From: Azolla caroliniana
Lineage: Eukaryota > Plantae > Polypodiophyta
Direction of reading: 5' to 3'
Assembly: GCA_043228905.1 (NCBI GenBank)
Contig: JBHGNT010000001.1
Location: 6,138,001-6,202,000 of the forward strand
DNA: 64,000 nt
Shown here: in pieces, positions 25,134 through 57,349 of the stretch
Position numbering within the stretch: the first letter of the stretch is position 1
How the letters are laid out: the number at the start of each line of letters is the position of its first letter
The notes under the pieces: model-generated
Database searches by the model: none
Seen by the model: only the letters and a program-made list of their open reading frames with translations
Told to the model about the DNA's origin: nothing
Made by a program: the position numbers and the translations under genes

Positions 25134-25288
25134 TGGTCTCGTGACCACCCCAATCACCTTACTCAAAAACAGACAGAAACTCACACACACATAGACGGGC
25201 ATATTAACAAAGAAGCAGATGAAGCATTAAAGAAGGAGAAGATGATAACGAAGAGGAAGAGGTACTGAAGAAGAAAGAAGAAAAAGGC

Positions 25289-33300: not shown

Positions 33301-36110
33301 GAACCTGTTAAGCGGTACGGGTACAATGAGTACATGGCGCATCATTATGCGTACATGACCAAGGTGGCGGAAGTGCGTGAGCCGGAGAGCTACGCAGAAG
33401 CGGCAAGGGATGCAAATTGGCGTGCCGCTATGGAGGAAGAGATGCGGGCACTTGATGCCAACGATACATGAGACCTGGTTGACCCTCCCCGTCATTATAA
33501 ACCGATCGGATGCAAGTGGGTGTACAAGGTAAAGTACAACACTGACGGTTCAGTTAACCGGTACAAGGCCTGATTAGTGGCAAAGGGATACGCGTAGACC
33601 CACAGAATTGATTACGACGAGACCTTCGCTCCGGTAGAGAAGATGACGATGGTTCGTGTGGTGATGGCGGTTGTTGCGGCAAGGGAGTGGCATCTTCACT
33701 AGATGGACGTGAAGAATGCATTTCTTCAAGGCGATCTAGAAGAAGAGGTCTTTATGACCCAACCTCTCGGTTTTCAGTTAGGAGTGAACAAGTCGGCTGT
33801 ATGCCGGGTGAAGAAATCCCTGTATGGCTTGAAACAAGCCCCCGAGCTTGGAATGCGAAGATCATGCACCGGTTGCGTAAGATGGGGTTTGTGGCCTCCA
33901 AATCCGACTCTTCATTGTTCATCCGGCAAGGTCCGGATGGTCCAGTTTGCATCTTGTTGTATGTTGATGATCTGGTCATCACCAGACTCGGACTCGATGA
34001 AATCAACCAAGTCAAGTCCCAACTGTCGGACGCATTTGAGATGAAGGACCTGGGGGACCTTCACTATTTCCTTGGGATCGAGGTGATCCGAACCCCCGAC
34101 GGCATATTGCTCTCACAAGGACACTATGTGTTGAATATGCTGTACAAGTTCGGCATGACGGAATGCCGCTCTATTTCTACACCCTTGGACCGGAAACAGA
34201 AGCTCCGTCGCAACTCCGGACTGGCCTGCGATGAGAAACGGTTCCGACAAATTGTCGCAAGCCTTATATATTTGACCATCACCCGACCCGACATCAACTA
34301 TCCGGTCGTTGTGATTAGTCAATTCATGCATAAGCCGACCGTCGAGCATCTTCAATGCGCGCACCGAATACTGCGGTATGTGAATGACACGAAGGACCGA
34401 GGACTGTTATACCGGCGAGGTATGACCGAAGAGCTAGTCGGCTACACGAATGCCGATTGGGCCGGCGATGCATCAGATCATCGTTCCACTTCCGGCTATA
34501 TGTTTTCCCTTGGTAGTGCGGCTGTTACGTGGAGCAACAAAAAGCAGCCAACAGTGGCTCTGTTGAGCACTGAGGTTGAATACCGGGGCGCTACCATTGC
34601 CACCTGTGAAGCCATTTGGCTTCGGCGATTGCTGCAAGACCTGCAGATCGAGGCGTCGACCCCGATCCTGATCTACTGCAACAACATAAGCAGCATGCAA
34701 CTCGCCAAGAACCCCGTATTCCATGCTCACACAAAGCACATCGAAGTGCAGTACCACTTCGTGCATGTGAGCGTGTCCTGAGCGGTGAAGTCAAACTTCG
34801 GTATGTTCATACGGATCGGCAAATTGCCGACATCTTCACCAAACCGCTCGGATTGGACAAGTTGCAGCACTTCACCGAAATGCTTGGTGTTTAGCATCTC
34901 GACGTGCCACACTTGAGGGGGAGAATGGGCAAAGACACCACCGGAACGGGCAAAGGCAAAGAGACTGCCGATTGCGCCGGTGGGGGAAGAACCGACAAGG
35001 GGAGAGAAAAGAAGAAGAAAGGAGCCGAGTTGACAAAGGAAGTTGACACATCCAAACAAGTCGAAGCAAGCGGCAGCGGAGGCAGAGTCAAGAAGGATAG
35101 AGCCGACCGGAAGAAGAAGGCCAAGACCCGGACATGGTCCGATGTGGTGAAGGGCCTGGAACCAGAAGACGAATCGGGAGCAACCGATTCAGACAAGAGT
35201 TGGAACGAATCGGAGACAGTTGATTCGGTTCTATAGAAGGATTTGGAAGAACCGGATCAATTCAAGGCCAAGAGGACAAGAAGGCAGCAAAAGTCGACGC
35301 CAACACGAAGGAATCGGCGAATCGACAAGAGCCGAAGTCACAACAACGAGGCAGCTGAATTGGGCATGTTGAGCAGACAAGCCGACCAAGGGAGTCGAGA
35401 TGCACAGGAACAGAAGGGTCGCGGAAAACGGGACCGGACCAGACGAGGAGTGCGAGCGAGGCGGAGTGACGCCAGAAGGAGCCAAGTGAAAGGACCGGCT
35501 GCCATAGAGACTGACACTACGATCCGACCTTAGATTGAGCTTGAGAGGGAGTGTTGAGTGACAAGCTCAACCGGATCCGGATTGGCATCCAGAAGGATGA
35601 GCCGGATCGGTGAGCCGGTGGCCGGTGAGTTGGGGAGCCGGTTAGCTGGATCAAGCAGTAACCGGAAGCCAAGTAGCAGATAGTCTACTAGGGATTTAAT
35701 ATCTCGCAGTTAGTGTTAGACGCTCGTGTGAGCATTGAAGTATACCGTACTTCTGTCAGTCCGGATGGACTTGTATAAAAGTGTTCACTGAACACATACG
35801 ATGTACAGACTGAGCAATATTTTTTGAATTGTTTTTCTGTCCCTCCCACGTACTGTTAAGCTCTCCATTAAACCTATTTTCTGCTTTTTGTTTTTCTATT
35901 GTTTCCGCACGCTATTTGTTTATACAAATATACTTACAACAGGGTATATGGAACATGGACCTACTTTGTGGATATGTTAGTATGGTATGTTGGTATGGTT
36001 ATGTTGAAGATCTTCAGTACATTTTGAACCAGATGCAAACCGAGGGTGTATCCCCAAGTTCAGCCATCTTTGTCTGTAGCATGAAGAAGAGGGGTCCCAA
36101 AGGCCCCTAA
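30330..36110 (+). pseudogene. PLS-type PPR gene relic split by the Copia insertion (pieces about 30330-30614 and 35927-36110)
   Basis: EIAKDGYERDQSLGNALRDMYTKCASL on the left and W..GY..DLQYILNQMQTEGVSPSSAIFVCSMK on the right are PPR motif consensus fragments, with stops and frameshifts. Confidence 0.7.
30615..35926 (+). mobile_element. Ty1/Copia LTR retrotransposon, structurally complete but decayed
   Basis: LTRs 30615-31003 and 35552-35926 (TGTTGAG...TACA, moderately diverged), TSD AATAT, PBS TGGTATCAGAGC (31004-31015, tRNA-iMet), PPT ttgagagggag before the 3' LTR. Gag (31103-31828), integrase, RT (LYVDD) and RNase H fragments carry stops and frameshifts; the protease region appears deleted. 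Confidence 0.95.
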
Positions 36111-39570: not shown

Positions 39571-42500
39571 TTATGTACAAATCCCTAAAGGGACACGATA
39601 GTTCCATCTTATGTGGATGCCCACTGACTCAAGAAAGGGAGAGGATGACCATTGTTGGATGAAGGCTATGCGTTGTCTTTCAACTCCCTCGGAGCCGCCC
39701 TTAAGGCCATCATATTGGCTCTTCAGAGTGGCTACAATTTCACTCCATATCTCTTGCAGTAACCTTGTTAGATGGGCGGTTTGGTTGGAGAAGACTCGCC
39801 TACATCGTTGTTTCCATAGAATCCAAAGGGTGGGGCTGACCAATTCCAACACCTCTTGAGATTTGTCATTAAGAGGAATAGAGTGGACATTGCCGATGGA
39901 GGAGAAAAGGACCTCTTGTGCTTTTATCACCAAAGTCATCCCCTCCTCTTAATGCTCGTATCGGCCAATTGCAGCTTGCCATGATAGCCAACATATTTCC
40001 CCACTTGATTGAACCTTGCACCTGGCATAATTGCAACAAGCGGCCAACCCCCCGCCATATTTGATGGGACGTTGGGCAGTCCCACAGAGCGTGTCGTATG
40101 GATTCTACGGCATGTGGGCACTCTACACAATTAGGAGAGCTAAGGTTCCCACATTGCCATGCTCCCACCGGTAGGGACTTATGTATTAACAGCCATTGGA
40201 AAGTGGTAATTCGCCTCACGTGTTGTTGCTTCCAGATTTTCTGCCAAAACTTGGTGATTATTGCGGAGGGAACTTGAAATGTGTGCCAGACCTTCGCAAC
40301 ACCCGGTTCTTGGGCGGCTTGAGCAGTTAGAATGTGGCGACCCAATCTAGTTGTGAATTGGAAGAAAGGGATGGGTTTGCTTCCTTGCCCCACGTAGGGA
40401 TCACGCCATGTCCATTGCAAAGGGTCCCAACTGACCTTACGTAGCCATGTGTTTTCATGAGTACATATATGCCAATCGGGTTGTACTTTGATCGGATTAG
40501 GATCTACAATCCATTTATGACTAGTGTGCGCAAGTACTCAAATGGCGTTATTCTGTGTTGGTGTCTCAGTGTCTCGCAATTCAGGGCCTTCGAGTCTGTT
40601 TGGTGGTCCTCTACCTCTCGGAATCAGAGAACCCTCCTCCTCATGGCCTATCCATTTCTCCATTGTCATCCTTTGAGTAGTAGATTCCCTAATCAGTAGA
40701 GCGTTAATGATTTCCGATCTCATAGTCCATCCACCCCTGATTCCATGGAGTATGTTCGCCTGATCTTGTAGTGGCATTGACATAAACCGTCGCCAACATT
40801 CTATACTTTTTCCTGGACCTTCTGCAATGTATCCCCATGACAACCCCTTACGTGATCCCAGTAGTTGATTAGATTCATCCTTGAGACATGGGTTCCATAG
40901 GATACGTTGACTGAGCCAGGCAGGTTCGGATCTCGGTTGATCACACTTGAGCCCTCGACGAATGTCACACCATGCCTTCCACATGGATGCACTGAATCTA
41001 TCCTCCAAATGGCGGGAGAAACTAGGTTTGAGATCCATGTTTAGAATCCATCCCGTTTGGGGGGCCCAATTGACCCCTTTTCGTGGCCTAAAGTAAGCGA
41101 AACGTAACCTCAGTGGCATTTTCCAACAATCATTTCCTGGTTGGAGTCCTCGCACCACAAATTTGGCAAGTAAGGCTTTCGATTGTGAAAGGGGATCAAT
41201 AAGATCCAATCCCCCTCTCGATTTAGGCACTGTGAGTATAGGCCACGCCACCTTGGCGCGAGCTACATGGTCTTCCTTACCAAACCAAATGTAGTTGGGG
41301 ACCAGTCGTTGAATCTGATAGACTGTACCATGTTGTTGCGAGGAGTACCTGATTTGCCACTATGATGCGACCCGCTAGCGACAATTTTTTCGAGCTCCAA
41401 TGTATCAACTTTTGTCGAATGGAAAGGATAATGGGTGCAATCATAGTCTCCGGCGGTATGTTGAAACCAATTTGGAAGCCCAAATATTTGGTGCTCTCAC
41501 CTTGATTGATCCATTTGAAAGCAGGGTGTGGGTGCCACGCCGTATGTGTTTCCTGAGAGAGCCATATTGCACAGGATTTGTGCCAATTGATCATGGCGTT
41601 GGATCTCTTGCAAAATAAAGCTAGCCCACTTTCTAGCTTTTGGAGGTTTTCCAGGTTGCCTTGCAGGTAGACTGTTGTGTCATCTGCAAATTCTATATCC
41701 AGGATGCTTTGGTAAGAATGAGGTATGGGAAGACCACGTAGGTTGAGATGTTGCGAGTTGAGAAAGCAAGAGAGTGCTTTGGCGTATAATAGAAATAAGG
41801 ATGGAGCTAGTGGGCATCCCTGCCGTACAAAGCGAGATATTCGGAAAAAGGGGCCCCTTTCACCTACCAGTGAAACGCAACTACTGCCATTCCTATAAAA
41901 TCCTACAATGCCTTTGATCCATGTCTCTTGAAAGCTAAGTTTCCTCATCACACTTTCTAGAAAGTTCCAGCATACCCTGTCATATGCTTTCTCAAAATCT
42001 AGTAGCACCACTGCTACCTTCTTGTTGGTCTACTTGGCAAGGGTTATTGCTTCCCAAAATGAGAAGAGGTTGTCTAGGATGCTCTGATTTCTAACGAAAC
42101 CTGTCTGGGACGGATGAATGAGTTGAGGGAGAAGTGGAGTTAAACGGTGTGCCACGATTTTTGCAAGCAACTTATAGACAATATTGAGAAGAGTAATGGG
42201 CCGCCACTTGTGAATGTCGTTGGCATTCCCACCACTTTTAGGAATGAGATGTATCATCCCTTGTCCAAATTCCTCCGGCATGCTTCTAGAGGTGATGATC
42301 TCCTCATATGCCTGGATGAGGTCTTCTTTAATAGTGCCCCAAAGGCATGTGAAAAAATGCGGGGTGAGTCCGTCGATTCCGGGGCAACTCTCGGCATCTA
42401 AATCAGTGAGGGCCTCCCATATCTCAATGATTGATAGGGGACGCACAATCCAGGTATTCATTTCCGGTGTGACTTTCTCAGGTATGCTTTGGAGGATAAT

Positions 42501-43817
42501 ATCATCGCTTATGTCTTCCCCTGTAGCTATAATGTCTTCGGTAAGTAGGCGGCTATAATACCTTGTGGCAATATTCCTCATTTCGTCGCCATCCTCAGTG
42601 GTCGTTCCATCCTCTCGGTTGAGGTTGCGCATCACAGTTCTAGCGTGCGTCGGGCCTTTGGAGCGGAAGAATTCCTTTGTGGTTTTGTCCCCTACTCGAA
42701 TCCATTGCGCCATGCTGCCATGAAACTCCATGTCATATATTTCCTTTTCTGCCATGCTAAGTTCCTGTTTGGTTGTGGCAACTTGTCCTGCGATCCAAAT
42801 ACAGGACGGGTATCTCTGTTGGAGTCGTTGTAAGGCTATTAGTCCCCGTTTTGTCCTCTATCGCTTCTCCTGAGCATCCGTGCATCTGGTCTTGACAATC
42901 TCATGTAGGAGAGTAGAGGCTCTTGTTAATTTAGCTAAAAGTTTGTCTGATGCTGATGAGCCATTGACGGGTAATGAAAATTGGTTGGATAGTTGGTCCT
43001 TCACATCTATAAGTGTGTAAATAGTGTGTGGGATGCGAGTCTGGAATGGGCCCCATTTTTGGTGCAATTGAAAATGACCAGCTACCGGGTAATGGTCAGA
43101 GAAAGTCGTGCATGGAATTATGCGACACCACACTCCCTTCGCTTCTAGAGCCTCCCCCACATAAATGCGGTCAATGCGAGATAGGGTGGGTCCACTATTC
43201 TGCTCGTCTGATCAGGAGAATAGGAGAGAATCCCTTTTCCGTTGGAAGTTGGCAAAATGCCAGATGTCTCGCAGGTTAAGGTGGACACATAGCTTCTCCC
43301 ATTGTTTACGTTCCCTTCCTTGTAGAACTGTGGGGTTGTTGTTGGAGCTATCGTGAATGGATTCAATCATATTAAAATCCCCTCCAATGCACCACTCTTC
43401 CGCACCCACTACTTGTAGGCGGATGCGGTCCCAGAATGTTGCTCTTTTTGTTCTGTTATTTGGAGCATAAACATTCATGAAGTTCCATCGTTGCCCTCGG
43501 ATGGCCAACGTGCAAAAATGTGCCCTACTAGGTATAAGTGATTCTTGGTGTATTAAGCCTTGGGCTAGATGTTCTCGAATCAAAGTGCAAATACCACCAT
43601 GATTTCCATCCTCCCAAATTGTTCGCCATGATCCTGGTAGAAGGTCTCCAACTTCCTTTAACTGTGTGCTATCGAGGTGGTGTTCCTACAACATGATGAT
43701 GCTAGCACCACTCCCTAGTAAATATTCTTCAAGATCCCTTCTCAGTTTCCATCTATTTTGTTGGTCTAGTCTACATCTAAGTCCTTGCACGTTCCATGTT
43801 ATAATCTTCATACTCAT
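39571..43817 (-). pseudogene. LINE ORF2 (endonuclease-RT-zf-RVT), broken by stops and frameshifts
   Basis: Collinear ORF fragments 43686-43817, 43212-43583, 42858-43160, 42030-42755, 41277-42011, 40538-41251, 39869-40420, 39571-39939. Confidence 0.9.
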
Positions 43818-46123
43818 GGAATGGGGTGGGAGGTTGCCAGTTGTGCCTGGTGGTTTGTATAGCAGGTCGTGAGTGGGGAGCACTCACCATTTAGACATCC
43901 AATCATTTCCAGGGATGAAATAGTGGTCCACATCCATGAGTGGAGTTTGTGGGCTATCCTGTGAGCTTCAATCGCCCCTTCATGCTTCTCATAGAAATAG
44001 ACAAAGCTTGGAGTTAGTTGGGTGTCTATGATAGTCCACAGGTGGATGTGGCAAAGATGGGGGTCCTCTTCATCCATGGTGCACCAGAATTCAATGTTAT
44101 GCCAATGTTGCTTTAGTTCATTCATGAGCTCTTCATCTCTTATTTGTGCTACAAAGCACGCTGCTTGGCTACATAACATATATTTAATCTTGGATTTCAA
44201 CCAATCTTCCTAAGTTGGAAGCAAGAGTGGAAAGGAGATTGAGGTCGTCGGAACTCCGTTCTTGTGCACCGCTGATACATGTACCCTTATTTTTTCCACT
44301 GTCTTGAGCCCTATACCTAGCCATTTCAAGGCGTTTTGTGGGTGTGGTTCAAGGTCTTGGCTAGAGGAAGCACACTCATTTGTGTCTGGGGCGACTATGA
44401 TTTGAGGTGTGACATTCACACTTCTGCCTTGGTTTGTTGCTTCTGCATTGGGTGTCGTTCCACTCAAGCTCCTTATTAGGGTCTTTACATGACTTATTCG
44501 TCTGTGTTTCCCTGTTTTGTAAGCTTTAACGAGAACTTTCTCTTGTGTGCTTGGTGTCACCTTAGGTCGTTCCTTGGGGCTTAAGAAAGAACTAGGGGAA
44601 TGCTCATCTGTGGGGGGGAGCTCTTGTAGTAGATCAAAGCAATTGGGATAGGCGATGGAGGATTTTTTGCCGATGATGTTTTTCGAAGGACATGGGTTTT
44701 TTCCACCACTCGCCATTCCATCACAGCCTTGTCGGTTGTGGTGGGGGAGGCTTATGATGTCTTATGGTAGCCTAACCTTCCAGAGTCTCCTTTGTAGGAT
44801 CTTTAATACGTCTTGTGGGGCAATTCTTTTTTAAATGACCAAGTTTTTTGCATGCAAAACATTGCCCCGGTGCGCCAATCACTTCTATGCGTTCTTCAAT
44901 TCACATTCCGTTTTTCCAGGGAATGAGGATCTTGGAGGGAAGTTTATTGATGTCCTGCACCATGAGGCGGATAGAGGGAGGGCCTAGGTGCTTCTTTAGT
45001 CTGTCTGCTAGCGTTACTTCCTCATCCAACATCATCCCAAAGGAGTTGCCATTAGTAAGAAGTAACATGTTGTATTCTAAGGATTGTCCAGGAAACAACA
45101 TTGTTACCTTTTTCATGGAGTCATCCTGTTGTGCGGCTTTCTCTGGGTTAAAACCATGTGTCCATTTACGCATGAACAACCATGTATTTCGGAACTGGCA
45201 GGGGAAAGTGCTATGAGGTTCGTTGCAAACTCCTTGTCTTCTAGTATGATTTGATAGAAGCCTTTACCAAGCGGTTGGACTTCTTTTATACCACGTAGTT
45301 GTGAATGAAATTGAGCTTGCAACATATCCCACAACAACCCTCTGTTTGGTCGTGATCCCATCACTCGGCATATGACCACTATTCGCTCAAGGCACTCTAT
45401 CTCTTTCTCAAGTAGAAGCATCTCTTCGTTGTTGAAAATAATCTCAACAAGACCCCCGCTATCAGAGATGTTTTTTTCGTTATCGATCGAGGGGCCTGTT
45501 GGTGCAATGTGTTCGACAGTGGCGATGTTCGAAGGTGCCATTAGTGATAAAATCAGACTGCGTCTCTTTCTCTCTTATCCTTTTTTTTTGGGGGGGGGAG
45601 GTTTACGGGAGTGTGTCCCACTCCTTGAAGTGTGTGTGTGGGGGGGGTGTCTGTTACTCTCTTAGCCGGACAAGGCCTAACACAAGGTGTCACGGAGACA
45701 CTTCACCAAAGGGTGATTACGGCATAGGATTAAGATTCAACGATTACACCGACTTACGTAGGTTACACTATTAGATTGCTTTGGTTAATTACACGCGTAA
45801 GATATAACAGTGATTACAGAACGGAAATCAAGACAGAAGTATAAACAACATAAGCTCTACTAATTATCCGCTGTCATTACAATAGGGTCCGGGCCTTTAA
45901 ATAGGTTTCCGGCCCGTAGTACAAAACGGTGCCTCTCGCACCTATTCGGGATCCGTCCGGATCTGGAACGGCATACCGTTTCCAGTCCGTCCGTCCACAC
46001 TATGCTTATCTACAACCATATCTAATTAATTCCTTCACTCCGTAATTTGGACTCCTTGCCGGCCGGTAACACATGGCACGCCCGTGGGACAGTACCTTGT
46101 ACGTCGAACCCTTCTCGGCCCCT

Positions 46124-49036
46124 TCATTGTTCACCCAAATTGTCCAAATTACTTTGTTCAAGAATTTCCACTTGTTCTTCCGGTTGTGGTTGTTGCGGCT
46201 GTGCTTGCTGCTGCTGCTGTGGTTGCGGTTGGGACTGAGGTTGCGCCGGCTGCTCTGCTTGCTGCTGCTGCTCCGTTTGCTTCGCTGACTCCGGCTGCTC
46301 CGTTTGTCTCTCTGGCTCCGGCATCTCCGTTTGACTGCTTCCGGTTCGGTCTCCTTCCAGTAACGGTTCCTCATCACTGAGGTTGACCGTAACTGGTTCT
46401 CGTTCTTTCTCTCCCCGGAGCCGGGACCTCTCGTAGCTTTCAAACTGGATCTGCGCCTCCAGCCTGTCGTCGTCCAGCTGAGCTACAAGTTGCCGGACTT
46501 GCTCTAGTTGGTCCTCTGCCAAGGCTTGAAAGTCTTCGGCAAGCTCATCCCTTATGCCGGTGAAGTCTTCGGAAGTCAGCATATAGCAATCATCTCCCTC
46601 CTTCCGCCGGTTCTCTACGTCAGCCCGGAGCAATTGGAGTTCCGCCGCGTTCGTGGCCCACTTGGTCCACCATTTGACGGAACCGTTGTCAATCAAGCTC
46701 TTGGTCTGGTTCAACCAGGCCCGCATTATATCTTGGATGCGACTTGCTCCCATTTGAGCTCTGCTTTCCACCACTTGTCGCTCCTCCTTCAACTGCTTGA
46801 TGAGGTTTGCCGTATCCTCCGCCTGCTCTCTGTAGCGCGTCAGCTGCCCTTGATATGTCGTTTGCAGCCTCTGCAGTACCTCTGCCGCTCTTTCTTTTTC
46901 CGCCTGCTGTTGCCTGAGGAGATCTGTCCGAACCTTCTCCGCCTCTTCCAACCGTCTTCTGTTTTCCGCTTGTTCCTTAGCGAATGCGGTTGCGGTCCGA
47001 TCAACTGCTTGCCGGAGCTCATCCGTCCGTTCCTTGTGCTCCGTTTGCAACCGTTTATACTCCCGGTGCAATTGCTCAAATTCCTCCGTTTTTTGTTTGA
47101 GCTTGCCGTTGATCTGGCGATGGTTCCGGTCCTCCCGGTCCTTTACCTGCCGGAGTTCCTCTTTCAGGCTCTCTACTTCTGTTTCGGCGTTCCTCCGGAG
47201 CCTCTCCTTCTCTTGCAGCATTTTCTCCTTCTCCTCCTTGAGCCGGTCGTATGCTTGGTGGCCTTTCCGTAAGCTCTCCTCGGCCCGGCGTAGATTCTCA
47301 GCAGTCTTTTTGAGTTCTGCCTCCGCTGCCGTCTTCAATTCTCTTTCGCGGCTCCTCAGCGCTTCTTGGGCAGCTAGCTCATCCTTTAAATCCGCAAGCT
47401 CTTGGGCTTGTGCCGCATTTCTCTCCGGAACGGTTTCCGTTGCCGGGGTCTGATTGCTATGTACAGGGTGATTTGACACTTTATTCTGTACATTGCCCGG
47501 AGTCACCGGTGCTTGGACTTGTGTTTCCCTTGTGACCCTGTCCAAGTCTTGTTCAAGGCTCCGGATTCTGGACCGGGCCGTCTCTAGATCTACGGTTGTG
47601 ACGAGCAACCGTTCCTGGTGCGCTCTCTCTTCCGCCTCTATATACTCGACCACTCCGGCGATTTGCTCGCCTACCCACCGTAGCCACATGCTACTGGTGC
47701 CCTGTTGCTGTACTGGTCGGGTCGGCTCATTCACCGTGGAATTGTCTGGCCTGATTGCCTGCATATGCCGTTCTGGTTCTACTCCTTGGCCGCCGTGTGC
47801 TCTGGCTGGGCTCGCCGGCTGTTGAGTTCCGGTTCTCGCCGTTTCCGGAGCCGTTGGACTGACTTCTTCTATAGAAGTCGACAAGACCGGTTCCCTACGC
47901 ACCGGTTCCGGTTCTTCCCTTGTGGTTTGCTCAGGTTGAGTTGGGGGCGTTTCTGCCTCTCGCGGGTACGACCGCTCCCCTCCTGTCTCGGCGGTCCTAC
48001 TTCTCGACCGTCGTTGGAGGTGCTCTTCTGGCTCCTCCATTTCCTCTTCCTGTGTCACGACATGTTTCTGTGCCGTCAAGGGTTCCGGTTCCTTCTGTCC
48101 TGGTCTCCGTAAGGTTATCTTGACGGGTCGGACCGGTGACACCTCCTCCGGTTCTGGGACCCGTTTCTTCCCTTTCGTCGCCTTCGACGCCAGCAGCTGC
48201 TGTCGTTTGGACGCCGGCTTCGAGGTGCTTCCTTTCGATACTCTTGGCCGCTTCTTTGGCTGGACGGTCTCGACCGGCGGCACGAGCAATGTTATCCATT
48301 GAGCTACGGCGTGCCACAGCTTCCGGCCCTCCTTGCCGTCCTTCCCTCGTACCATGTCGATTGCCATGCACAACCCGTCTGCAATCAACACCGGCCAGTC
48401 CACCTTGACCCCTTCATAGGTGGCTATGATCATCCCTGCCCGATTTTTTGGCATGACAGGGGGTCGGGGGTACACGTGACCGTACTCATGGAGCACTCGA
48501 GCTATCTCCCTGAATAGCGGATCTTCGCCGCCCTGCGTCCGATAGCCTTTGCCGGCAACAGAGTACTCACCGAAATATCGGGTGAGTTGCTCCGAGGTTG
48601 GGTTATCGATCTGAAAGATTCCTCCCTCCGGAAGGCCTGTTAGCGCGCGGATCGCTTCCTTGGTGATGACCTCTGTGGCGAGCTCCTTGATGACCCGGTC
48701 GGCTTCTCTGTGCGGCGGTGCCTCCATGATGGCCAAGAACCCCTCCAGTCCGTTTTGCCTGAACCATTTCCTGGCCGCTTCCGACAGTGTTTGTGGTTCC
48801 ATGTCTGCTTCAAGGTCGAGAGACGATGGCGAGGTAGAGTGGTGATGAGAGTGAGAGCGAGAGAGAGAGCGTTCTGAGCGCGGGGGTTCTCTGCGTGCAG
48901 GTTCGCGTTTGCTCAGCTTCCACTGTCTTGGTGCTTCTGTGCTTCTTGGCTCGCGAAATGAAAAGGTCTCCATGCGTTCTGTTTCTTCTTTGTGCGTTTT
49001 GGCGCCTTTTTCGAGCATGCACACGTCGTGTACCAA
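46124..49036 (-). CDS. Additional sense ORF of the Gypsy element (970 codons; first ATG at 49018): globular N-domain, basic NLS-like segment, long coiled coil, Q/E-rich tail
   Basis: Uninterrupted 2.9-kb ORF between the pol stop and the 3' LTR; KKRPR/KGKKR motifs; E/R/K/Q-rich helical region; no transmembrane stretch seen. Confidence 0.9.
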   Translation of the reverse strand: MVHDVCMLEKGAKTHKEETERMETFSFREPRSTEAPRQWKLSKREPARREPPRSERSLSRSHSHHHSTSPSSLDLEADMEPQTLSEAARKWFRQNGLEGFLAIMEAPPHREADRVIKELATEVITKEAIRALTGLPEGGIFQIDNPTSEQLTRYFGEYSVAGKGYRTQGGEDPLFREIARVLHEYGHVYPRPPVMPKNRAGMIIATYEGVKVDWPVLIADGLCMAIDMVRGKDGKEGRKLWHAVAQWITLLVPPVETVQPKKRPRVSKGSTSKPASKRQQLLASKATKGKKRVPEPEEVSPVRPVKITLRRPGQKEPEPLTAQKHVVTQEEEMEEPEEHLQRRSRSRTAETGGERSYPREAETPPTQPEQTTREEPEPVRREPVLSTSIEEVSPTAPETARTGTQQPASPARAHGGQGVEPERHMQAIRPDNSTVNEPTRPVQQQGTSSMWLRWVGEQIAGVVEYIEAEERAHQERLLVTTVDLETARSRIRSLEQDLDRVTRETQVQAPVTPGNVQNKVSNHPVHSNQTPATETVPERNAAQAQELADLKDELAAQEALRSRERELKTAAEAELKKTAENLRRAEESLRKGHQAYDRLKEEKEKMLQEKERLRRNAETEVESLKEELRQVKDREDRNHRQINGKLKQKTEEFEQLHREYKRLQTEHKERTDELRQAVDRTATAFAKEQAENRRRLEEAEKVRTDLLRQQQAEKERAAEVLQRLQTTYQGQLTRYREQAEDTANLIKQLKEERQVVESRAQMGASRIQDIMRAWLNQTKSLIDNGSVKWWTKWATNAAELQLLRADVENRRKEGDDCYMLTSEDFTGIRDELAEDFQALAEDQLEQVRQLVAQLDDDRLEAQIQFESYERSRLRGEKEREPVTVNLSDEEPLLEGDRTGSSQTEMPEPERQTEQPESAKQTEQQQQAEQPAQPQSQPQPQQQQQAQPQQPQPEEQVEILEQSNLDNLGEQ

Positions 49037-49100
49037 TTTAGTATTAAGTAGCGTGGCGTCTCTTAAATGCCCACTACGTACCTTTTCGCGGTGTGTGACC

Positions 49101-52100
49101 TTACATATCCGTAGGTCCCTTCGGACCCTGACCGTTTTCCTTACGGGTTGCCGTGTCTTCCTTCGTCTCTACTACGGGTTCCCCGTCGTCTTTTTCTTCC
49201 GGATCGATCCGTACCGATCCCGGGCAGGTTCCTGGTGTAGTGCCGGTGAGCTGCATAAACGGGTTCTTTGGCATCGGTCCATTATAGGGCTTTAGTCGAA
49301 ATCCATTCACCCACTTGCCTACTACTTCCCCGGCAAGTGTCCCTATCTGATAGGACCCGTTGTATTCCCGTGTCAGCCAATACGGGCCTGTCCATCTGAA
49401 CCGGAGTTTACCCGGCATCTTGCCCATCCTCGTTTGGAATACTAGCACCGGCTTTCCGATTTCGAACATTTTCTCATTACCTTTCCGGTGCCGGTCAACG
49501 AACGCTTTCCGTCGTCGTTGCTCCAGTTCCATGTGTAGGATGCTGGCCAGCCGTTGCTCCTCCAGTTCGCATAGTGCTGCTAGCCGTATTTCCTCCGACT
49601 TCTTTTCATTCAGCCGTTCCCGTAGTTGGATCCGTAAGCTTGGTACCTGAAACTCGACCAGCATGACCGCTTCTAAGCCGAATGCTAGCCGGAACGGCGT
49701 TGTCCGGATACTTGTTTTGTATGCCGTTCGGTACGCCCATAGCGCACTATGGAGCTTTGTGTCCCAGTCCGTCCGGTTTTCGTTGACGATTTTGCGTAGA
49801 ATGTTCTGCAGCGTTTTGTTGGTGGACTCCGCTAACCCGTTCGCCTGTGGGTAGTACGGTGTGCTCCGTTTATGAACCACGGCATAGAACGTTGTTAAGC
49901 TTTCCACTACCTGGCCGAGGAAATGCCCTCCTTGGTCGCTGATCAGTTCAATCGGACATCCATATCGGCACCAAATGTTCTCGTACAGGAATTTTGCTGT
50001 GGATGACGCGGTGTTGTCTCTCAGGGCCTTAGCTTCCACCCATTTCGTGCAATAATCCGTTGCCACGATGACATAACGATTACCCGTTCTCATTGCCGGT
50101 GGCTTGAACGGTCCGACAAAATCCAATCCCCACTTCTGGAATGGCTCTAGTGGAAGTACCGGTTGGTGTGGCATCCGTGCTTGCTCCGTAGGCTGGCCCA
50201 TTCGTTGGCATAGGTCACATTCCTTAGCATACTTGACGGCATCTTTTAGCGTCGTGGGCCACCATAAGCCGCTCTGCCATACCTTTCTTGCCGTCGCTTC
50301 CCCGGCATAGTGTCCTCCGGCAACCCCACAGTGTGCTTCCCGTAAGATTACTTCTTTCTCGTCACTACGGACTGCCCGTCTCCATATTCCATCTGCTCCT
50401 TTGTGGTAGAGAGTGTCCCGTAACAGACAGAAATTGCGGCTCTGCACCGCCAGTCGTTTCCTCTCGTCCCGGTTCATTTCCTCCGGTGGCAGGCCCGTGC
50501 TTAGGAACTGGTGCATGTTTGTCAGCCATTTATCTTCTGATGCCACCGTGTCGTCCGCTGCCGTTTCCGGGGTGATACGGAATAACTCCGCGTCCGGAAA
50601 TTCATCCGCTACTCCGTTGCCTGGTTCTCCGGACTCTAACCGGCTCAGGTAGTCTGCTACGGCATGCTGGATACCGGGCCGGTGAAAAATCTCGAATTCG
50701 AACTCCTGCAACAGTAAGGTCCAACGGGCCAACTTACCGGTCAGGGACGCCTTGGAAACTAAGTAGAGGAGCGCCGAGTGATCCACATGGAAGGAGAACT
50801 TCCTTCCCAATAGGTAGTGACGAAACTTTGTTACACTGTAGATCATGCCCAGAGCCTCCCGTTCCGTCGTTGAATAGTTCTTCTCCGCTTGGGACAGCTT
50901 CCGGCTGGCGTAATATACCGGCCGGTACCATTTGGGCTCCGTAAGCTGCATTAAGGCGCTGCCAATAGCGATGTCAGACGCGTCCACGAACACGTGAAAT
51001 TCCTTGCTCCAATCCGGAGGCTGCACGACGGGTGCTTGCGATAAAAGAACCTTCAGGGCATTGTATGCCTTATCCTCCGTATCCGTCCATTGGAACGGTG
51101 TCCGATGTACCGCGGTGTGTAATGGTGTCGCCAAGTCCGCCAAGTGACGGAGCATCCGGCTGTGCCACCGGATTTGTCCTAGGAATCGGCTTAATGCTTT
51201 GGCCGTTTTCGGCGCCGGTGCCCCTAGTATGGCGTTTACTTTGTCCGGGTCGACCGCAATGCCCTCCTTACTTACGATGTGTCCCAGCAATATTCCACTT
51301 GAAACCCCAAAGATGCATTTTGCTGGGTTTAAGCTTAGCCGGTATAACCTACACTTTTCAAGGCATAACCGTAGGTGCTGCAAATGGTCTTTTCCCCGGC
51401 TATAGACTGCAAAATCATCCAGGAAAACTTGCATGAAGGCAGGGATGTATTCGCCGAAGATCTCCATGATAATTCGCTGGAAAGTTGCTGGTGCCGTTTT
51501 TAGGCCGAACATCATGACTTCTGCCACGAACACCCCCCATTCGGTGACGAACGCTGTCTTTTCCTGGTCGTCCGGGTGCATCCGGATTTGATTGTACCCG
51601 CTGAACCCGTCTAAAAAGCTATAAACTTCATGACCGGCGACGGCATCCAGTACTCCGTCCGTGAACGGAAGCGGGAATGCATCCGTAATTGTGGCGGCAT
51701 TTAGTTTCCGGTAATCTACACACACACGGATTTTACCGTTCTTCTTTGGGACGACGACGATGGGGCTCAGCCACGTCGCTTTCTTTACCGGCCGGATAAA
51801 GCCCACTCTTAGGAGTTTGTCGATTTCCTCTTTTACTTTGGCGGCGTAGTTGGGGTTCATTCGATATCTTCGTTGCGCCACTGGTTTCGCGTCCTTGCCT
51901 AAGTGGATCTGATGCTGATATAATTGAGGGTCCAGCCCTCGCATGTCTTCGTATGACCAGGCGAATACGTCGCGAAACTCCGTGAGAAGTTTGATCATCG
52001 CCGCTTTATCTTCCGGCTTCATTTCTTTGGTGATGTGTACCGGCTTTGATTCGTCTTTGCTTCCTAGGTTCACTTCGTCGAGCTGGGATGCTTTTACCCG

Positions 52101-54869
52101 TTGGGAAACGGCCATTTCCCGTTCCAACGCTTCCTGTGCTTGCCGTAATTCCCGAATCGCATCTTTGTCTGGTTCGGCTTCGGTGTCGTCCCGCTGCGGC
52201 AAGTATGCGGCTACGGCTTCAGCTACGTCAATCTCGAAGAGTGGTACGATCTTCGGATGTTCCTCCAAGTACTGGGCTTCTTCGTCGTCCGCCAATCCTT
52301 CAAGCATGTTCACACATTCCGCATACAGCGGTGTGCATTCCTTACCGTTGCTCGTCCGTGGTTGTGTCGGTACCCGGACCTTGGCTTTTCCGCGCCGGAA
52401 GGTAATCATATTTTTTCGCCAATTTTGCTTGATGTGTGCTGTTTTCAACCATGGTCTGCCCAGCAGCAGTGGGTACGCGCCTTGCGCCTGTAGCTGCAGC
52501 ACTACAGCCGAGATGTGAAATGTGTGGCCTCCTATGGTGACTTCCAATTTCCGTATTAAGCCCGTCGGCCGTACAGAGCTCGTATCCGCCATCCGTAGCC
52601 AGAACGGACATGGCTCCCATTCATGTATACCCAAGGCATCACACGTGCGAAGGCTTATTACGTTCACTCCGGAACCTCCATCGATTACTGTGCCGGGAAG
52701 TTCGTGTCCTTTGACAATAGCTGTGATCACCGGACTACTAGTGTCCACCACCGTCGGTCCCTCCTCTGGATTCGAGAAAAGGACTGGTGCCGGTGGAGCT
52801 ATACCGTCTGTCATGACCGTTTTTAGTCCTTCTGTGAATCGCGGCACGAGCTGCAAGAGTCTTCCTAGTGGTAACGTGATCTGACATTCTTGTAGTGCTT
52901 GCCATGTCTCGTTTTCTGGGTGGCTACCGTCGGTACTCCCTATGGTCTTCGCCTTTTGCCGTTCCGCGTCCGCGACGTTTCTTGCATTGGCTTCCTTCAC
53001 CCATTCTGTCGCCTGTTTTCGTATGGCCTCTTGTGTTTCCCATTCTTTGGCCATGCCTTTCGACCGTGTGGTTACTTGCTGTAAATCCGCCACCACCATA
53101 TTAACTGCTGGTCGTTTCTCGTAGCTCTTTACCGGGCACTGGTTACTGTAGTGGCCTTCCTGCCTGCAGTAGTAGCAGTACTCTTTACGGGTATTGCTGG
53201 ATTCAGCATTGCTGGTAGCCGGAGTCGGTCCCGTAGCGAGTGGTGCGTTCTGTGCCGGTTGGCTCCTTGGGGTTCCATGTTCCGGGTCCCTAGGGTGACC
53301 ACCTTTCTTGAAATTACGTTTCTTATTATTCTTATGTTTATTTCGGTAGTCCGGTCGTGGTGGATCGTAAAATCGGCCGTAGTCCTCCTGGTGCCTTCGG
53401 TAACCAGGGGAATGGTCTCTGTCGTATTGCTCGTGTCGCCTGTTGGGCTCTCGATAACGGTCCGATCGCTCATACCGGTCGTAGTTATCACGCCGATTCC
53501 CGTACCGGCCATCATTCTCTTGCCTGTCTCCGTACCGGACATCCTGTGCCGGTCGGTACCGGTTCATTTTTTGCCAACGATCTTCCTCTTCGTCTTGGCT
53601 GTTTCTTGGCTCGATCCGTCGGATGGGTGGTGCTTGTCGGTTTAACAGGTTATACTCGCACCGGTCCGTTGTATGACTCTTGGATTGACAAATCACACAC
53701 TGAGTGCGCATGGTGCACTCTACTGCCGAGTGTCCGGCATTCAAGCAGATTGTGCATTGAATTGCCTGCCGGAACCGGAGATCTTCCTCGGTGGGTAACG
53801 CCCGTTGCAGTGTTCCCAGCGTAAGCCATGAGCTTGTCTTTTCCATTTCTCTGACCCGGTCAATGACCTGATCGATGGTGCATCCTCGAAAGTCGATCAC
53901 CGTACACACCGTGCGTAACGGTTCCCGGAGTGCGTTTAAAAATATCGTCCGTAATTCCTCCTCCGGGGGTGCACGGGCAAGCTGGCTATGCATTCGTTGG
54001 AAACGGATGACGAATTGGGGTATGCTTTCCCCTGCCTCCTGCCGGATCGTATAAAACAAGCCCACCATTGTCGTCTGGTCGACCTCCTTGTGGAAAAAAT
54101 GCAAGAATTTTGCTTTTAATTCTGCAAATGTTGTGATGGTCGCCGGGTCCTGCGACCGCCGCCATCGTGTCGCTGGTCCCTCCAACGTGACTCCGAATTC
54201 CGCTATCTTCGAGCGTTCTTCTTCCTCCGGTGTCATTCGCTGGGACGTGTGATTTGCTTCCCATGTCTGCTCGAAGTCATCCACATGCGCTTCCGCATCC
54301 GGATCATCGCGGTACTTTGAGTATTGGAACGGCATGTCGTCGTCCAGTATTAAGCCGCGGTTTAGTGGCGTTTGTTGATATTTTTCCGGTTCTTTCTCCG
54401 GTTCCACTTCCGGTTCTTCTGCCGGTCCTTTTTCCGGTTCTTTTTCCGGCTCTTCTTCCGGTACCTTTGCCGGCTCTTTCGTTGGTGTTAGTGGCTTTGC
54501 TTCTTCCACTTCCGGTGTTGGTGGGTTGACGGCTTCCGTTTGCAATTCCGGATAGCCCTGGTTGAGCGGTTCCGGTTCTGGAGTCGGCACGGTATCCGAC
54601 CCGTCGTCTTCCGGGCCGCCGGGGGTATCGTTGCTGCTCCGGTAGTTCGTGTGCACGTTGTATCCCCCTTCGGAATCCGATTCGTAGGCTGAAAAGGCTT
54701 CTGCCTCGTTTTCTCCGCTTGCCAGCGCCTCCAGGAGTCGTTCGGTTTCCCGGAGACTACTTAGACTGCTTCCGTCGTCCTGGTCGCGAGTTTGCCGTAA
54801 CCGGAGAGATCTCGTTGGAGAACGAACGATCCGAGCGAATTTCCTGCGCTGCTTGCTGGAAAGTCTCAC
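49101..54869 (-). CDS. Gypsy gag-pol polyprotein (Gag with three CCHC knuckles, protease, RT, RNase H, integrase)
   Basis: CTICLNAGHSAVEC, CVICQSKSHTTDRC, CYYCRQEGHYSNQC; IDGGSGVN protease; LDGFSGYNQI and FLDD RT; VDASDIAIG...EREAL RNase H; HHCC and GLDFVGP/SDQG/NGLAE integrase; GPY motif. No chromodomain and no second RNase H. Confidence 0.96.
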   Translation of the reverse strand: MRLSSKQRRKFARIVRSPTRSLRLRQTRDQDDGSSLSSLRETERLLEALASGENEAEAFSAYESDSEGGYNVHTNYRSSNDTPGGPEDDGSDTVPTPEPEPLNQGYPELQTEAVNPPTPEVEEAKPLTPTKEPAKVPEEEPEKEPEKGPAEEPEVEPEKEPEKYQQTPLNRGLILDDDMPFQYSKYRDDPDAEAHVDDFEQTWEANHTSQRMTPEEEERSKIAEFGVTLEGPATRWRRSQDPATITTFAELKAKFLHFFHKEVDQTTMVGLFYTIRQEAGESIPQFVIRFQRMHSQLARAPPEEELRTIFLNALREPLRTVCTVIDFRGCTIDQVIDRVREMEKTSSWLTLGTLQRALPTEEDLRFRQAIQCTICLNAGHSAVECTMRTQCVICQSKSHTTDRCEYNLLNRQAPPIRRIEPRNSQDEEEDRWQKMNRYRPAQDVRYGDRQENDGRYGNRRDNYDRYERSDRYREPNRRHEQYDRDHSPGYRRHQEDYGRFYDPPRPDYRNKHKNNKKRNFKKGGHPRDPEHGTPRSQPAQNAPLATGPTPATSNAESSNTRKEYCYYCRQEGHYSNQCPVKSYEKRPAVNMVVADLQQVTTRSKGMAKEWETQEAIRKQATEWVKEANARNVADAERQKAKTIGSTDGSHPENETWQALQECQITLPLGRLLQLVPRFTEGLKTVMTDGIAPPAPVLFSNPEEGPTVVDTSSPVITAIVKGHELPGTVIDGGSGVNVISLRTCDALGIHEWEPCPFWLRMADTSSVRPTGLIRKLEVTIGGHTFHISAVVLQLQAQGAYPLLLGRPWLKTAHIKQNWRKNMITFRRGKAKVRVPTQPRTSNGKECTPLYAECVNMLEGLADDEEAQYLEEHPKIVPLFEIDVAEAVAAYLPQRDDTEAEPDKDAIRELRQAQEALEREMAVSQRVKASQLDEVNLGSKDESKPVHITKEMKPEDKAAMIKLLTEFRDVFAWSYEDMRGLDPQLYQHQIHLGKDAKPVAQRRYRMNPNYAAKVKEEIDKLLRVGFIRPVKKATWLSPIVVVPKKNGKIRVCVDYRKLNAATITDAFPLPFTDGVLDAVAGHEVYSFLDGFSGYNQIRMHPDDQEKTAFVTEWGVFVAEVMMFGLKTAPATFQRIIMEIFGEYIPAFMQVFLDDFAVYSRGKDHLQHLRLCLEKCRLYRLSLNPAKCIFGVSSGILLGHIVSKEGIAVDPDKVNAILGAPAPKTAKALSRFLGQIRWHSRMLRHLADLATPLHTAVHRTPFQWTDTEDKAYNALKVLLSQAPVVQPPDWSKEFHVFVDASDIAIGSALMQLTEPKWYRPVYYASRKLSQAEKNYSTTEREALGMIYSVTKFRHYLLGRKFSFHVDHSALLYLVSKASLTGKLARWTLLLQEFEFEIFHRPGIQHAVADYLSRLESGEPGNGVADEFPDAELFRITPETAADDTVASEDKWLTNMHQFLSTGLPPEEMNRDERKRLAVQSRNFCLLRDTLYHKGADGIWRRAVRSDEKEVILREAHCGVAGGHYAGEATARKVWQSGLWWPTTLKDAVKYAKECDLCQRMGQPTEQARMPHQPVLPLEPFQKWGLDFVGPFKPPAMRTGNRYVIVATDYCTKWVEAKALRDNTASSTAKFLYENIWCRYGCPIELISDQGGHFLGQVVESLTTFYAVVHKRSTPYYPQANGLAESTNKTLQNILRKIVNENRTDWDTKLHSALWAYRTAYKTSIRTTPFRLAFGLEAVMLVEFQVPSLRIQLRERLNEKKSEEIRLAALCELEEQRLASILHMELEQRRRKAFVDRHRKGNEKMFEIGKPVLVFQTRMGKMPGKLRFRWTGPYWLTREYNGSYQIGTLAGEVVGKWVNGFRLKPYNGPMPKNPFMQLTGTTPGTCPGSVRIDPEEKDDGEPVVETKEDTATRKENGQGPKGPTDM

Positions 54870-54969
54870 GCCGTCTTTGCCGTTCAGCGATGCGTCGAGC
54901 TCGGTCTGTAACCAAGTCGTGCGTTGGTCTAGTCATCCATTACCGTCGTTCGCTGCGAGAAAGCAGGAA

Positions 54970-54981
54970 TCGTGGTCGCCA
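54970..54981 (-). promoter_or_regulatory. Primer-binding site of the Gypsy element, probably tRNA-Arg
   Basis: Minus strand reads TGGCGACCACGA 6 nt after the 5' LTR. This would pair with a tRNA 3' end ...UCGUGGUCG-CCA, recalled as tRNA-Arg(UCG)-like. Confidence 0.65.
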
Positions 54982-57349
54982 AAACTGTGTTACTCTCTTA
55001 GCCGGACAAGGCCTAACACAAGGTGTCACGGAGACACTTCACCAAAGGGTGATTACGGCATAGGATTAAGATTCAACGATTACACCGACTTACGTAGGTT
55101 ACACTATTAGATTGCTTTGGTTAATTACACGCGTAAGATATAACAGTGATTACAGAACGGAAATCAAGACAGAAGTATAAACAACATAAGCTCTACTAAT
55201 TATCCGCTGTCATTACAATAGGGTCCGGGCCTTTAAATAGGTTTCCGGCCCGTAGTACAAAACGGTGCCTCTCGCACCTATTCGGGATCCGTCCGGATCT
55301 GGAACGGCATACCGTTTCCAGTCCGTCCGTCCACACTATGCTTATCTACAACCATATCTAATTAATTCCTTCACTCCGTAATTTGGACTCCTTGCCGGCC
55401 GGTAACAGTGTCACTTGTCGAAACTATTGAATGGGTGTAGGAACAATTGCTAGTATTGTGTGCAATGGGGGGGGGTTGTCACTCCTCAAACAGTGGGGGA
55501 GTGGGGGGGGTTCACTCCTCGAACAGTGGAGGAGGTGTGAGAGGAAACCCTAAATGATGGCCTCCTCACGAAACTGAGGAGGGTGATGCAACAGCGGCGG
55601 GGAGGAGAGGCATCTGTGTCAATGAGCAGTGGGAGGCTTCTGGACCGTCACGTTTCCGCTGCTTCGGCTCCTGCTCCTGCTCTGTTTCCCCTGCCTACTG
55701 GCACGAGTCAACTCTCCTGCGCCACTGCTCTGCTGTGCCGGGTGGGTCTCCTGGTGAGACGCCCACACCGCAAACCTCCGTCGGGGACTGGTGCACCGCT
55801 CTGCTGCTCTCTCCGTTCCCGCTCAAAAATTCTAAATAAATTTTATAACAAAGAGAAGTAAGAAACAAAGACAAATTTTATAACAACGGTAAGGTTTTAG
55901 ATTGCTAGTGCTAAGAGAATATCGCAAATTTCATTACTCAAGGAAATTGTCATATATCATTCATCCAATATTTAATATGGATTTCATAAATAATTAAAAT
56001 TAACACAATAAATTATATAAAAAGAGGACACCACACAATGTAATGGCAATAAAACAAGATTAAGGCCCAAATTCACACTCAAAATCGTTAACTTGTGGAA
56101 AGTTAATAAACACTTGCTTTGAATTTGATATCCTTACACATTGCTAACACGAGCATTCTAACTAAAAGGTAACATATCTATGTTTGTCTTAGTTTTCAAT
56201 ACAACACCTAGTGGAAGTTGACAAGGAAAATATTCATACTATTATTTTTAGGGAATCCTATTTCCTCATTGAATTTGTGAAATACCCCTCTTAAAACACT
56301 TCACTGAATTCTTAAAAATACTTTTCTCTCCCTCTTTCGTGTGCATTCAAATCATTATCATTTATATTTAGCAATGCTAAATATTTCACTAGCATGTCTA
56401 AAATATGAGGCAATGTTCATCTACTTAAGACACACCCTTGATGCCAAGGTCAATTGATCCCAAACATCACCCCCCTTCTAAAAATTGTCTTGTGAGGACT
56501 ATAAAAACATGAAAGAATCATTTGCCAAAAGCTTGAGTCGCAAGTCAACATTTTAATGGGAAGTGTAAATCCACAATATCTTTGTTATTTGCAAGCTTTG
56601 ACACATCACCTAACTAGGATAGATAACTAACAAAAAATAACAATAAACTAAGTGGCCATCCTCGACAAACTTATCTTGCGAGGGCAATTTCTGAAGTGAC
56701 TCCACTATTAGGCATTATCCGAGACACAACTTGTTGGACTAGTCAAAATATAAAATGAGACATGGGTGGGGAAGGTCTTGCTCGCATCTCATTTGAGTAT
56801 ATGACATCTGCCAACTTAGGCCCCTTCCCTTTTGTTGATTCAAGTGGTAATTCTCAGTTGGTTGTTTTTGCCAATTGACACCATTAGTATGCATCAACTT
56901 TGAAATAAAGAGACAATTGACCCAACAATCGAACCATGATCAATTATTGACATGTAGCTCGTAGTGAACATTAAGCACATCATGTATGTAGCATCTCTTT
57001 ATCACTGTTTTCGTGGCCGAAGGTTTGGTAAACACTTTTGGATATTTGGACATATTCCATGCGCCCTATCCAACAATGCCTATTTTCTCCAATGGACACG
57101 ATTTTGGCAATCTGGACCATTTGGATAGCCCGCAATAATAAGGTCTTTGATCGAAACCAATTGCATGAAGTTAGCTTCTTTAAGTAATCGCTCATGCAAT
57201 CTCTATTTGATTGTCTACAACTTAGAGACATCACGCTGCAAATTTACAATCTTTACTTTGAGTGCTTTTAAGCTCTTTAGTGTCTAATCGACACTTGTAT
57301 ATTTTTCTTTATTCTTTGTGAGTTTTCACCTCACTTTCAGGTTTCCCAC

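Follow-up and report, generated by a model that had tools for sequence, protein, structure and literature searches.

The 64,000-nucleotide stretch of Azolla caroliniana contig JBHGNT010000001.1 analysed here (the window, numbered from its first letter) carries a young, high-copy, non-chromovirus Ty3/Gypsy retrotransposon with an extra open reading frame (ORF), ORF2, between pol and the 3′ long terminal repeat (LTR). ORF2 is a real, old and selected accessory gene, the product of which is predicted to combine a VANC21-like core with a long coiled coil. It is a single open frame of 964 codons (46124–49018, minus strand), behind pol and sense to gag-pol (49101–54335), with its stop about 53 bp short of the 3′ LTR. 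An earlier interpretation of the letters of the window (the sequence-only reading) had described an intact frame of 970 codons that fills almost all of the space from pol to the 3′ LTR. The frame is indeed uninterrupted, but its length had been overstated, as position 49036 precedes the first ATG by 18 bp; the filling of the space is true of the window copy, and the short gap on the pol side is peculiar to this copy. At 49089 the window copy lacks approximately 93 nt, among them a poly(A) run, that most of 20 siblings possess. The protein probably starts at Met16 and comprises 949 amino acids (aa), because Met16 (48973) is ATG in 39/39 aligned copies whereas Met1 (49018) is ATG in 36 and out of frame in five.

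The motifs listed in the sequence-only reading (WFRQNGLEGFL, ITKEAIRALTGLPEGG, KVDWPVLI, AQWITLL and KWWTKW) are all present, as are the basic motifs KKRPR/KGKKR and the Gln-rich tail. Its predicted coiled coil is borne out by hydrophobic heptad periodicity that is significant at residues 535–760 (p = 0.0015 and p < 0.0005). It had also seen no transmembrane helix and had set aside a classical env protein; the best 19-residue Kyte–Doolittle means are 1.15 in the family of the window copy (family A) and 1.29 and 0.87 in the related families B and D, and each of these windows falls within the globular domain.

The predicted structure of this domain matches the VANC21 (DUF1985) fold (PDB 9LNK) at 9% identity, and VANC21, a double-stranded DNA-binding protein, is its only structural match. 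On the strength of this model, the ORF2 domain is quite probably homologous to the VANC/PMD fold; its likeness to PMD itself is inferred through VANC21 from published comparisons. Its sequence does not qualify ORF2 as VANC, PMD, ATHILA or Transposase_32, and we assign it to none of these families. Pfam scans of ORF2 and its relatives (the window protein and 28 + 67 aligned members) returned nothing significant, and the DUF1985, PF10536, ATHILA and Transposase_32 models matched neither the window protein nor the scanned members. Genome profile searches with PF10536 and PF20167 were blank, as were their controls. Foldseek gave no match at E ≤ 0.001 against the PDB and viral structures, and VIA re-examination of its 107 chains gave none. 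Sequence-profile hits in the PDB were due to chance, and the best of them (ribosomal S15, E = 0.011) was rejected. In the ESM Atlas ORF2 has a feature score of 0.84 to clusters with PF03078 and PF20167, which is under the 0.9 mark and serves as a lead only, and the best score for the C-terminal block is an uninformative 0.78. The structure search proposed in the sequence-only reading bore fruit for the domain, as a predicted fold.

A genome search with the globular domain found 4,547 candidate places, which is not a copy number, and the 150 scored places are all 94–100% identical. Samples picked by domain similarity or by long open frames are biased. Selection was studied in a separate set, 39 further places retrieved by means of a DNA fragment of integrase, so that ORF2 itself did not guide the choice. 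ORF2 lies directly after pol in 38 of these places and reads for at least 930 codons to its natural stop in 21. Its rate of disablement (about 6.5 × 10⁻⁴ per codon) is the same as that of gag-pol (6.2 × 10⁻⁴; in a different sample, where six copies among 20 are intact across some 1,945 codons). Ratios of nonsynonymous to synonymous polymorphism (pN/pS) were calculated in 38 siblings and the window copy from variants common to at least two copies. They are 0.06 for the C-terminal block and 0.07 for the pol control, 0.13 for the domain, 0.16 for the leader, 0.37 for the coiled coil, 0.44 for the linker and 0.56 for the tail. Nine premature stops precede residue 871, each private to one copy, and the six shared indels all keep the frame. 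Purifying selection, and not the neutral decay that the sequence-only reading had named among its refuting outcomes, thus acts on the sibling copies, and ORF2 is almost certainly a real selected gene. The leader is favoured as coding because of its ratio (five nonsynonymous and 13 synonymous variants), and its interpretation as a mere untranslated pyrimidine tract is disfavoured, although U-rich…AG acceptor-like words occur in the leaders of families A, B, D and E (the further families are described below). Two copies have large private in-frame deletions inside ORF2 (L116, 294 nt; L132, 1,863 nt). L105, where ORF2 is not adjacent, was dropped, as was L106 in later LTR work; L105, L106 and L113 gave no LTR in the test of LTR conservation.

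The selected gene is also deeply rooted. Protein searches turned up distant homologues, which led to at least four further families (B–E) in the same genome. Their domains are 77% (C), 52% (B), 40% (D) and 37% (E) identical to that of family A, and identity in the reverse transcriptase (RT) is 80–90%; the RT and domain trees within the genome broadly agree, and synonymous sites are saturated among the five families. Within families the dN/dS of the domain is 0.10–0.15, in a sample chosen by similarity and biased towards conservation. Families A, B and D, and E as far as tested, have in common a variable leader, the globular domain, a basic stretch, a linker and a coiled coil, followed by a W..W..AAELQ.LR.D block and an acidic tail. 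The tail ends in a short acidic-hydrophobic motif (46124–46165, minus strand, in the window copy), of the S-I/V/N-L/F-D-I/N-L type in A, B, C and D and NIRAIL in E; it recurs in all five families while the rest of the tail varies, and is a candidate protein-interaction or activation motif. ORF2 has been inherited with the element in five families under purifying selection. It is accordingly very improbable, and largely refuted, that ORF2 is a recently captured host coiled-coil gene, a neutral passenger or an env-like membrane protein. Retrotransposons do capture genes (PMC7264820), and the roughly 4,500 candidate places may include a genic copy, but strong selection and the persistence of ORF2 in five families whose synonymous sites are saturated speak against capture, as does the gag/pol sequence that 58 of 60 domain-anchored 10-kb loci carry upstream on the same strand; the lack of a transmembrane segment in A, B or D speaks against env. 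The ten homologue clusters looked up have no informative name, a weak search among 4,856 candidates found no longer fused homologues, and metagenome contigs yielded no locus for the most distant homologue, P0161. One short LTR-bounded derivative of family D (L089, G000:C21:7568716-7578715; LTRs 99.6% alike) lacks RT and integrase and holds gag and the ORF2 domain within one 974-codon frame.

VANC21 recognizes a motif of nine bases in the non-coding DNA of the transposon family to which it belongs and causes methylation to be lost there, and other families are acted on by related VANCs (PMC5735166). It is also predicted to oligomerize through a coiled coil and resembles the host MAIN/PMD proteins (PMC13547354). 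By analogy, the ORF2 product may bind the DNA of its own element and counter host silencing through the predicted VANC21/PMD-like domain, a proposal to which we give an even chance; if the VANC/PMD fold is granted, self-directed anti-silencing or activation becomes rather probable, and ORF2 likely works like VANC. The protein would be made from a separate transcript (from an internal promoter or spliced), enter the nucleus through the basic stretch (residues 251–300), oligomerize via the coiled coil and dock at short sequence words within the LTR or spacer, with CGGA-type words as a weak candidate in families A–C. Once docked, it would lift CG/CHG methylation locally or bring in activators, also in trans on sibling copies. 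The fast divergence of ORF2 between families fits a changing specificity. No GT-AG joint in the element was seen in contigs of three runs, none of them recorded as RNA; one low-depth joint was rejected as a splice, having no splice ends. Coverage varied along the element in these contigs, whose depth does not serve to rank genes.

The inserted copies are methylated, because private transitions are enriched at CG (0.138 per site) and CHG (0.156) sites relative to A/T (0.042). The observed/expected CpG ratio is near 1.0 in the elements and about 0.5 in flanking DNA. CG/CHG transitions affect 3/57 sites in spacer plus leader and 129/827 in coding sequence (p = 0.03), a weak hint of hypomethylation that comes from one of two comparisons and is confounded by selection. 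As to the targets, CGGA is enriched in the family A LTR (12 versus 3.4 expected, family-wise p = 0.007) and CGGATC in that of family B (seven versus 0.4 expected), and whole-element k-mer tests against codon-preserving shuffles gave borderline words only. The cis side, the target words, is the weak link of self-directed anti-silencing: the enrichment is absent from the LTRs of C, D, E and a Copia control, CGGA-type words show no higher conservation than other parts of the LTR and no tandem motif arrays lie outside the coding frames. The lack of arrays, together with sibling bodies that mutate like methylated DNA, would also suit a protein of the same fold and the opposite sign, which binds and restrains the element (copy-number control or MAIN-like compaction) or regulates family-specific transcription without affecting methylation. 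MAIN and MAIL1, which are PMD proteins of VANC-type fold, are required for silencing (PMC13547354, PMC5418596), although they have also been reported to counteract Polycomb silencing. The acidic, Gln-rich tail seems to resemble an activation region, and selfish retention in five families better fits a benefit to the element; we therefore regard a restraining or purely regulatory role as unlikely.

Of the nuclear roles offered by the sequence-only reading, the predicted VANC21-like fold and the stretch resembling a nuclear localization signal (NLS) favour anti-silencing; tethering and particle scaffolding become its rivals. As a tether, ORF2 would take the place of the absent chromodomain, with the domain recognizing host DNA or chromatin and the coiled coil forming the link to the pre-integration complex. 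An integrase without a chromodomain, a DNA-binding-like fold with a suitably long coiled coil and a C-terminal block as constrained as pol, which suggests a fixed partner, are all consistent with such a tether. Target-site duplications are varied, however, no insertion preference was seen (no test aimed at it was made) and VANC-fold proteins are not known to target integration, so that this role appears improbable. A helper at the RNA or particle level (a scaffold, a nuclear-import factor or a cofactor of unusual plus-strand priming) is slightly more doubtful. Families A, B, D and E have no polypurine tract before the 3′ LTR and in its place carry a tRNA-3′-end-like sequence ending in CCA, 1–2 nt from the LTR. 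ORF2 co-occurs with this site in these four families, yet shared ancestry explains the co-occurrence; the long coiled coil, and the oligomerization predicted for Athila-domain proteins (PMC13547354), would suit a helper, whereas the sole structural match is a protein that binds double-stranded DNA.

The preferred analogy with VANC has clear limits. VANC21 and VANC6 (DUF1985) belong to VANDAL Mutator-like DNA transposons (PMC5735166, PMC10398659), whereas the carrier here is an LTR retrotransposon. The ORF2 domain is more compact, with the low identity and lack of a Pfam match given above, and is joined to a far longer coiled coil and to a C-terminal block that is conserved in its own right; its elements have no clear tandem target arrays and its activity is only predicted. 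Gypsy elements with a VANC/PMD-type fold do not form a new category, because PMD-A clades are Gypsy-encoded in angiosperms (PMC5418596) and PMD-C (PF10536) is reported to resemble VANC DUF1985. For the latter reason, ORF2 and PMD-A/MAIN/MAIL (PMC5418596, PMC6317226, 10.1101/2024.09.27.615353) probably have a common fold class. Like PMD-A of angiosperm Gypsy (Ogre) elements, ORF2 is a Gypsy-encoded extra ORF, but its domain spans about 180 aa against a 347-position model that scanned members do not match; Ogre/Tat elements have an additional RNase H, which the ORF2 element lacks, and the host of ORF2 is probably not an angiosperm. Non-chromovirus Gypsy elements commonly carry additional ORFs in the interval from pol to the 3′ LTR. 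Those of Athila (PF03078, PF20167; PMC11728184, PMC6317226) share with ORF2 the sense orientation, this position, NLS-like motifs, coiled coils and a non-chromovirus carrier without additional RNase H; they differ in that ORF2, of nearly 950 aa, matches none of their hidden Markov models and sits in an element with short LTRs, almost no non-coding 3′ region and no polypurine tract. The Retand/Grande ORFs (TRP28, PF04195, with an Smc-like coiled coil; PMC11963269, PMC7264820) likewise pair a small putative DNA-binding domain with a coiled coil between pol and the 3′ LTR, and a nuclear role has been proposed for them; they are, however, antisense, in angiosperm Tat elements with the additional RNase H, and ORF2 does not match PF04195. 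Full-text searches of the literature showed no description of the ORF2 family and no test of a retrotransposon-encoded VANC-fold protein; the REXdb extra-ORF table may bear on this point.

The demonstrated anti-silencing proteins of transposable elements in the literature examined come from DNA transposons (VANC, TnpA and Mu transposase), while what the extra ORFs of retrotransposons do is described there as unknown (for example in PMC7264820). A predicted VANC-fold protein under selection in an abundant retrotransposon lineage offers a concrete, testable function for this slot, and the existence of at least five natural variants would allow the specificity of protein for motif to be mapped. 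ORF2 also bears on whether the PMD fold originated in Gypsy elements or host genes, which is fully open according to PMC5418596, because PMD and VANC were described in angiosperms and its host, as a sperm-tail SHIPPO-repeat gene in the window suggests, is probably a plant of another group. Tentatively, and with less confidence than for any step above that we favour, a lineage of LTR retrotransposons in a seed-free plant may run VANC-type family-specific anti-silencing, and the VANC/PMD fold may be an ancient retrotransposon-borne module ancestral to the Athila/Ogre extra ORFs, MAIN/MAIL and VANDAL VANC. If so, the long-unexplained 'env-like' slot of plant Gypsy elements holds a counter-defence factor.

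Table 1. Features of the retrotransposon and of ORF2 in the window copy.
Feature	Position	Strand	Remarks
5′ LTR	54988..55407	-	420 bp, TG...CA, TATA-like box, CGGA words enriched
Primer-binding site TGGCGACCACG	54971..54981	-	preceded by a 6-nt spacer
gag-pol frame	49101..54932	-	gag, CCHC, protease-like DGGSG (by eye), RT, single RNase H, integrase
pol-ORF2 spacer	49019..49100	-	TATA-like word; lacks ~93 nt in this copy
ORF2 accessory gene	46124..48973	-	probable start Met16 (949 aa); first ATG 49018
Ser/His/Arg-rich leader, aa 16-72	48803..48973	-	probably translated; shared pN/pS 0.16
Globular all-helical domain, aa 73-250	48269..48802	-	predicted VANC21/PMD-like fold
Basic NLS-like stretch, aa 251-300	48119..48268	-	15 K/R versus 3 D/E; putative nuclear targeting
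Pro/Glu-rich variable linker, aa 301-440	47699..48118	-	
Helical/coiled-coil region, aa 441-740	46799..47698	-	heptad signal from ~535
Conserved C-terminal helical block, aa 741-870	46409..46798	-	W..W..AAELQ.LR.D motif; most constrained part of ORF2
Gln/Glu-rich tail	46124..46408	-	ends in short acidic-hydrophobic motif
tRNA-3′-end-like sequence ending CCA	46074..46113	-	in place of polypurine tract; 2 nt before 3′ LTR
3′ LTR	45652..46071	-	same sequence as 5′ LTR; GACAC target-site duplication on both sides

The element (Table 1) spans 9,756 bp on the minus strand (45652–55407) and was inserted just upstream of the LINE-like RT frames that it adjoins. Its two 420-bp LTRs have no mismatches and are flanked on both sides by the 5-bp target-site duplication GACAC. 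Pfam identifies, in Ty3/Gypsy order, gag, a zinc knuckle, RT, a single RNase H and integrase, and found neither a chromodomain nor a second RNase H in the element; an Rfam search returned nothing relevant. The primer-binding site is presumably of the tRNA-Arg type. Despite its identical LTRs, the window copy is probably not autonomous, because its gag frame from the usual ATG of the family closes after 59 codons (54760–54936, minus strand), compared with 1,934–1,954 codons from the usual start of gag-pol in six of 20 siblings. In most siblings the interval from pol to ORF2 contains a TATA-like word and a long run that is A-rich or poly(A), and the spacers of B, D and E have a comparable A-rich run and then a TATA-like word, an arrangement that suggests an internal promoter in A, B, D and E. 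In the same four families an ATGGATG overlap at the start of gag (~54929–54940, minus strand) creates an upstream ORF of 3–4 codons just before the gag ATG, with possible translational control of gag-pol.

Elsewhere in the window, a decayed LINE-like region (RVT_1; 39571–45541, minus strand) lies directly beside the Gypsy insertion and a Copia-type element (gag, RVT_2) occupies approximately 30680–35900 on the plus strand. A host gene at 25223–27214 (plus strand), a GC-rich frame of 664 codons from stop to stop, encodes ten SHIPPO (sperm-tail PG-rich) repeats (E = 1e-53), which are linked to flagellated sperm.
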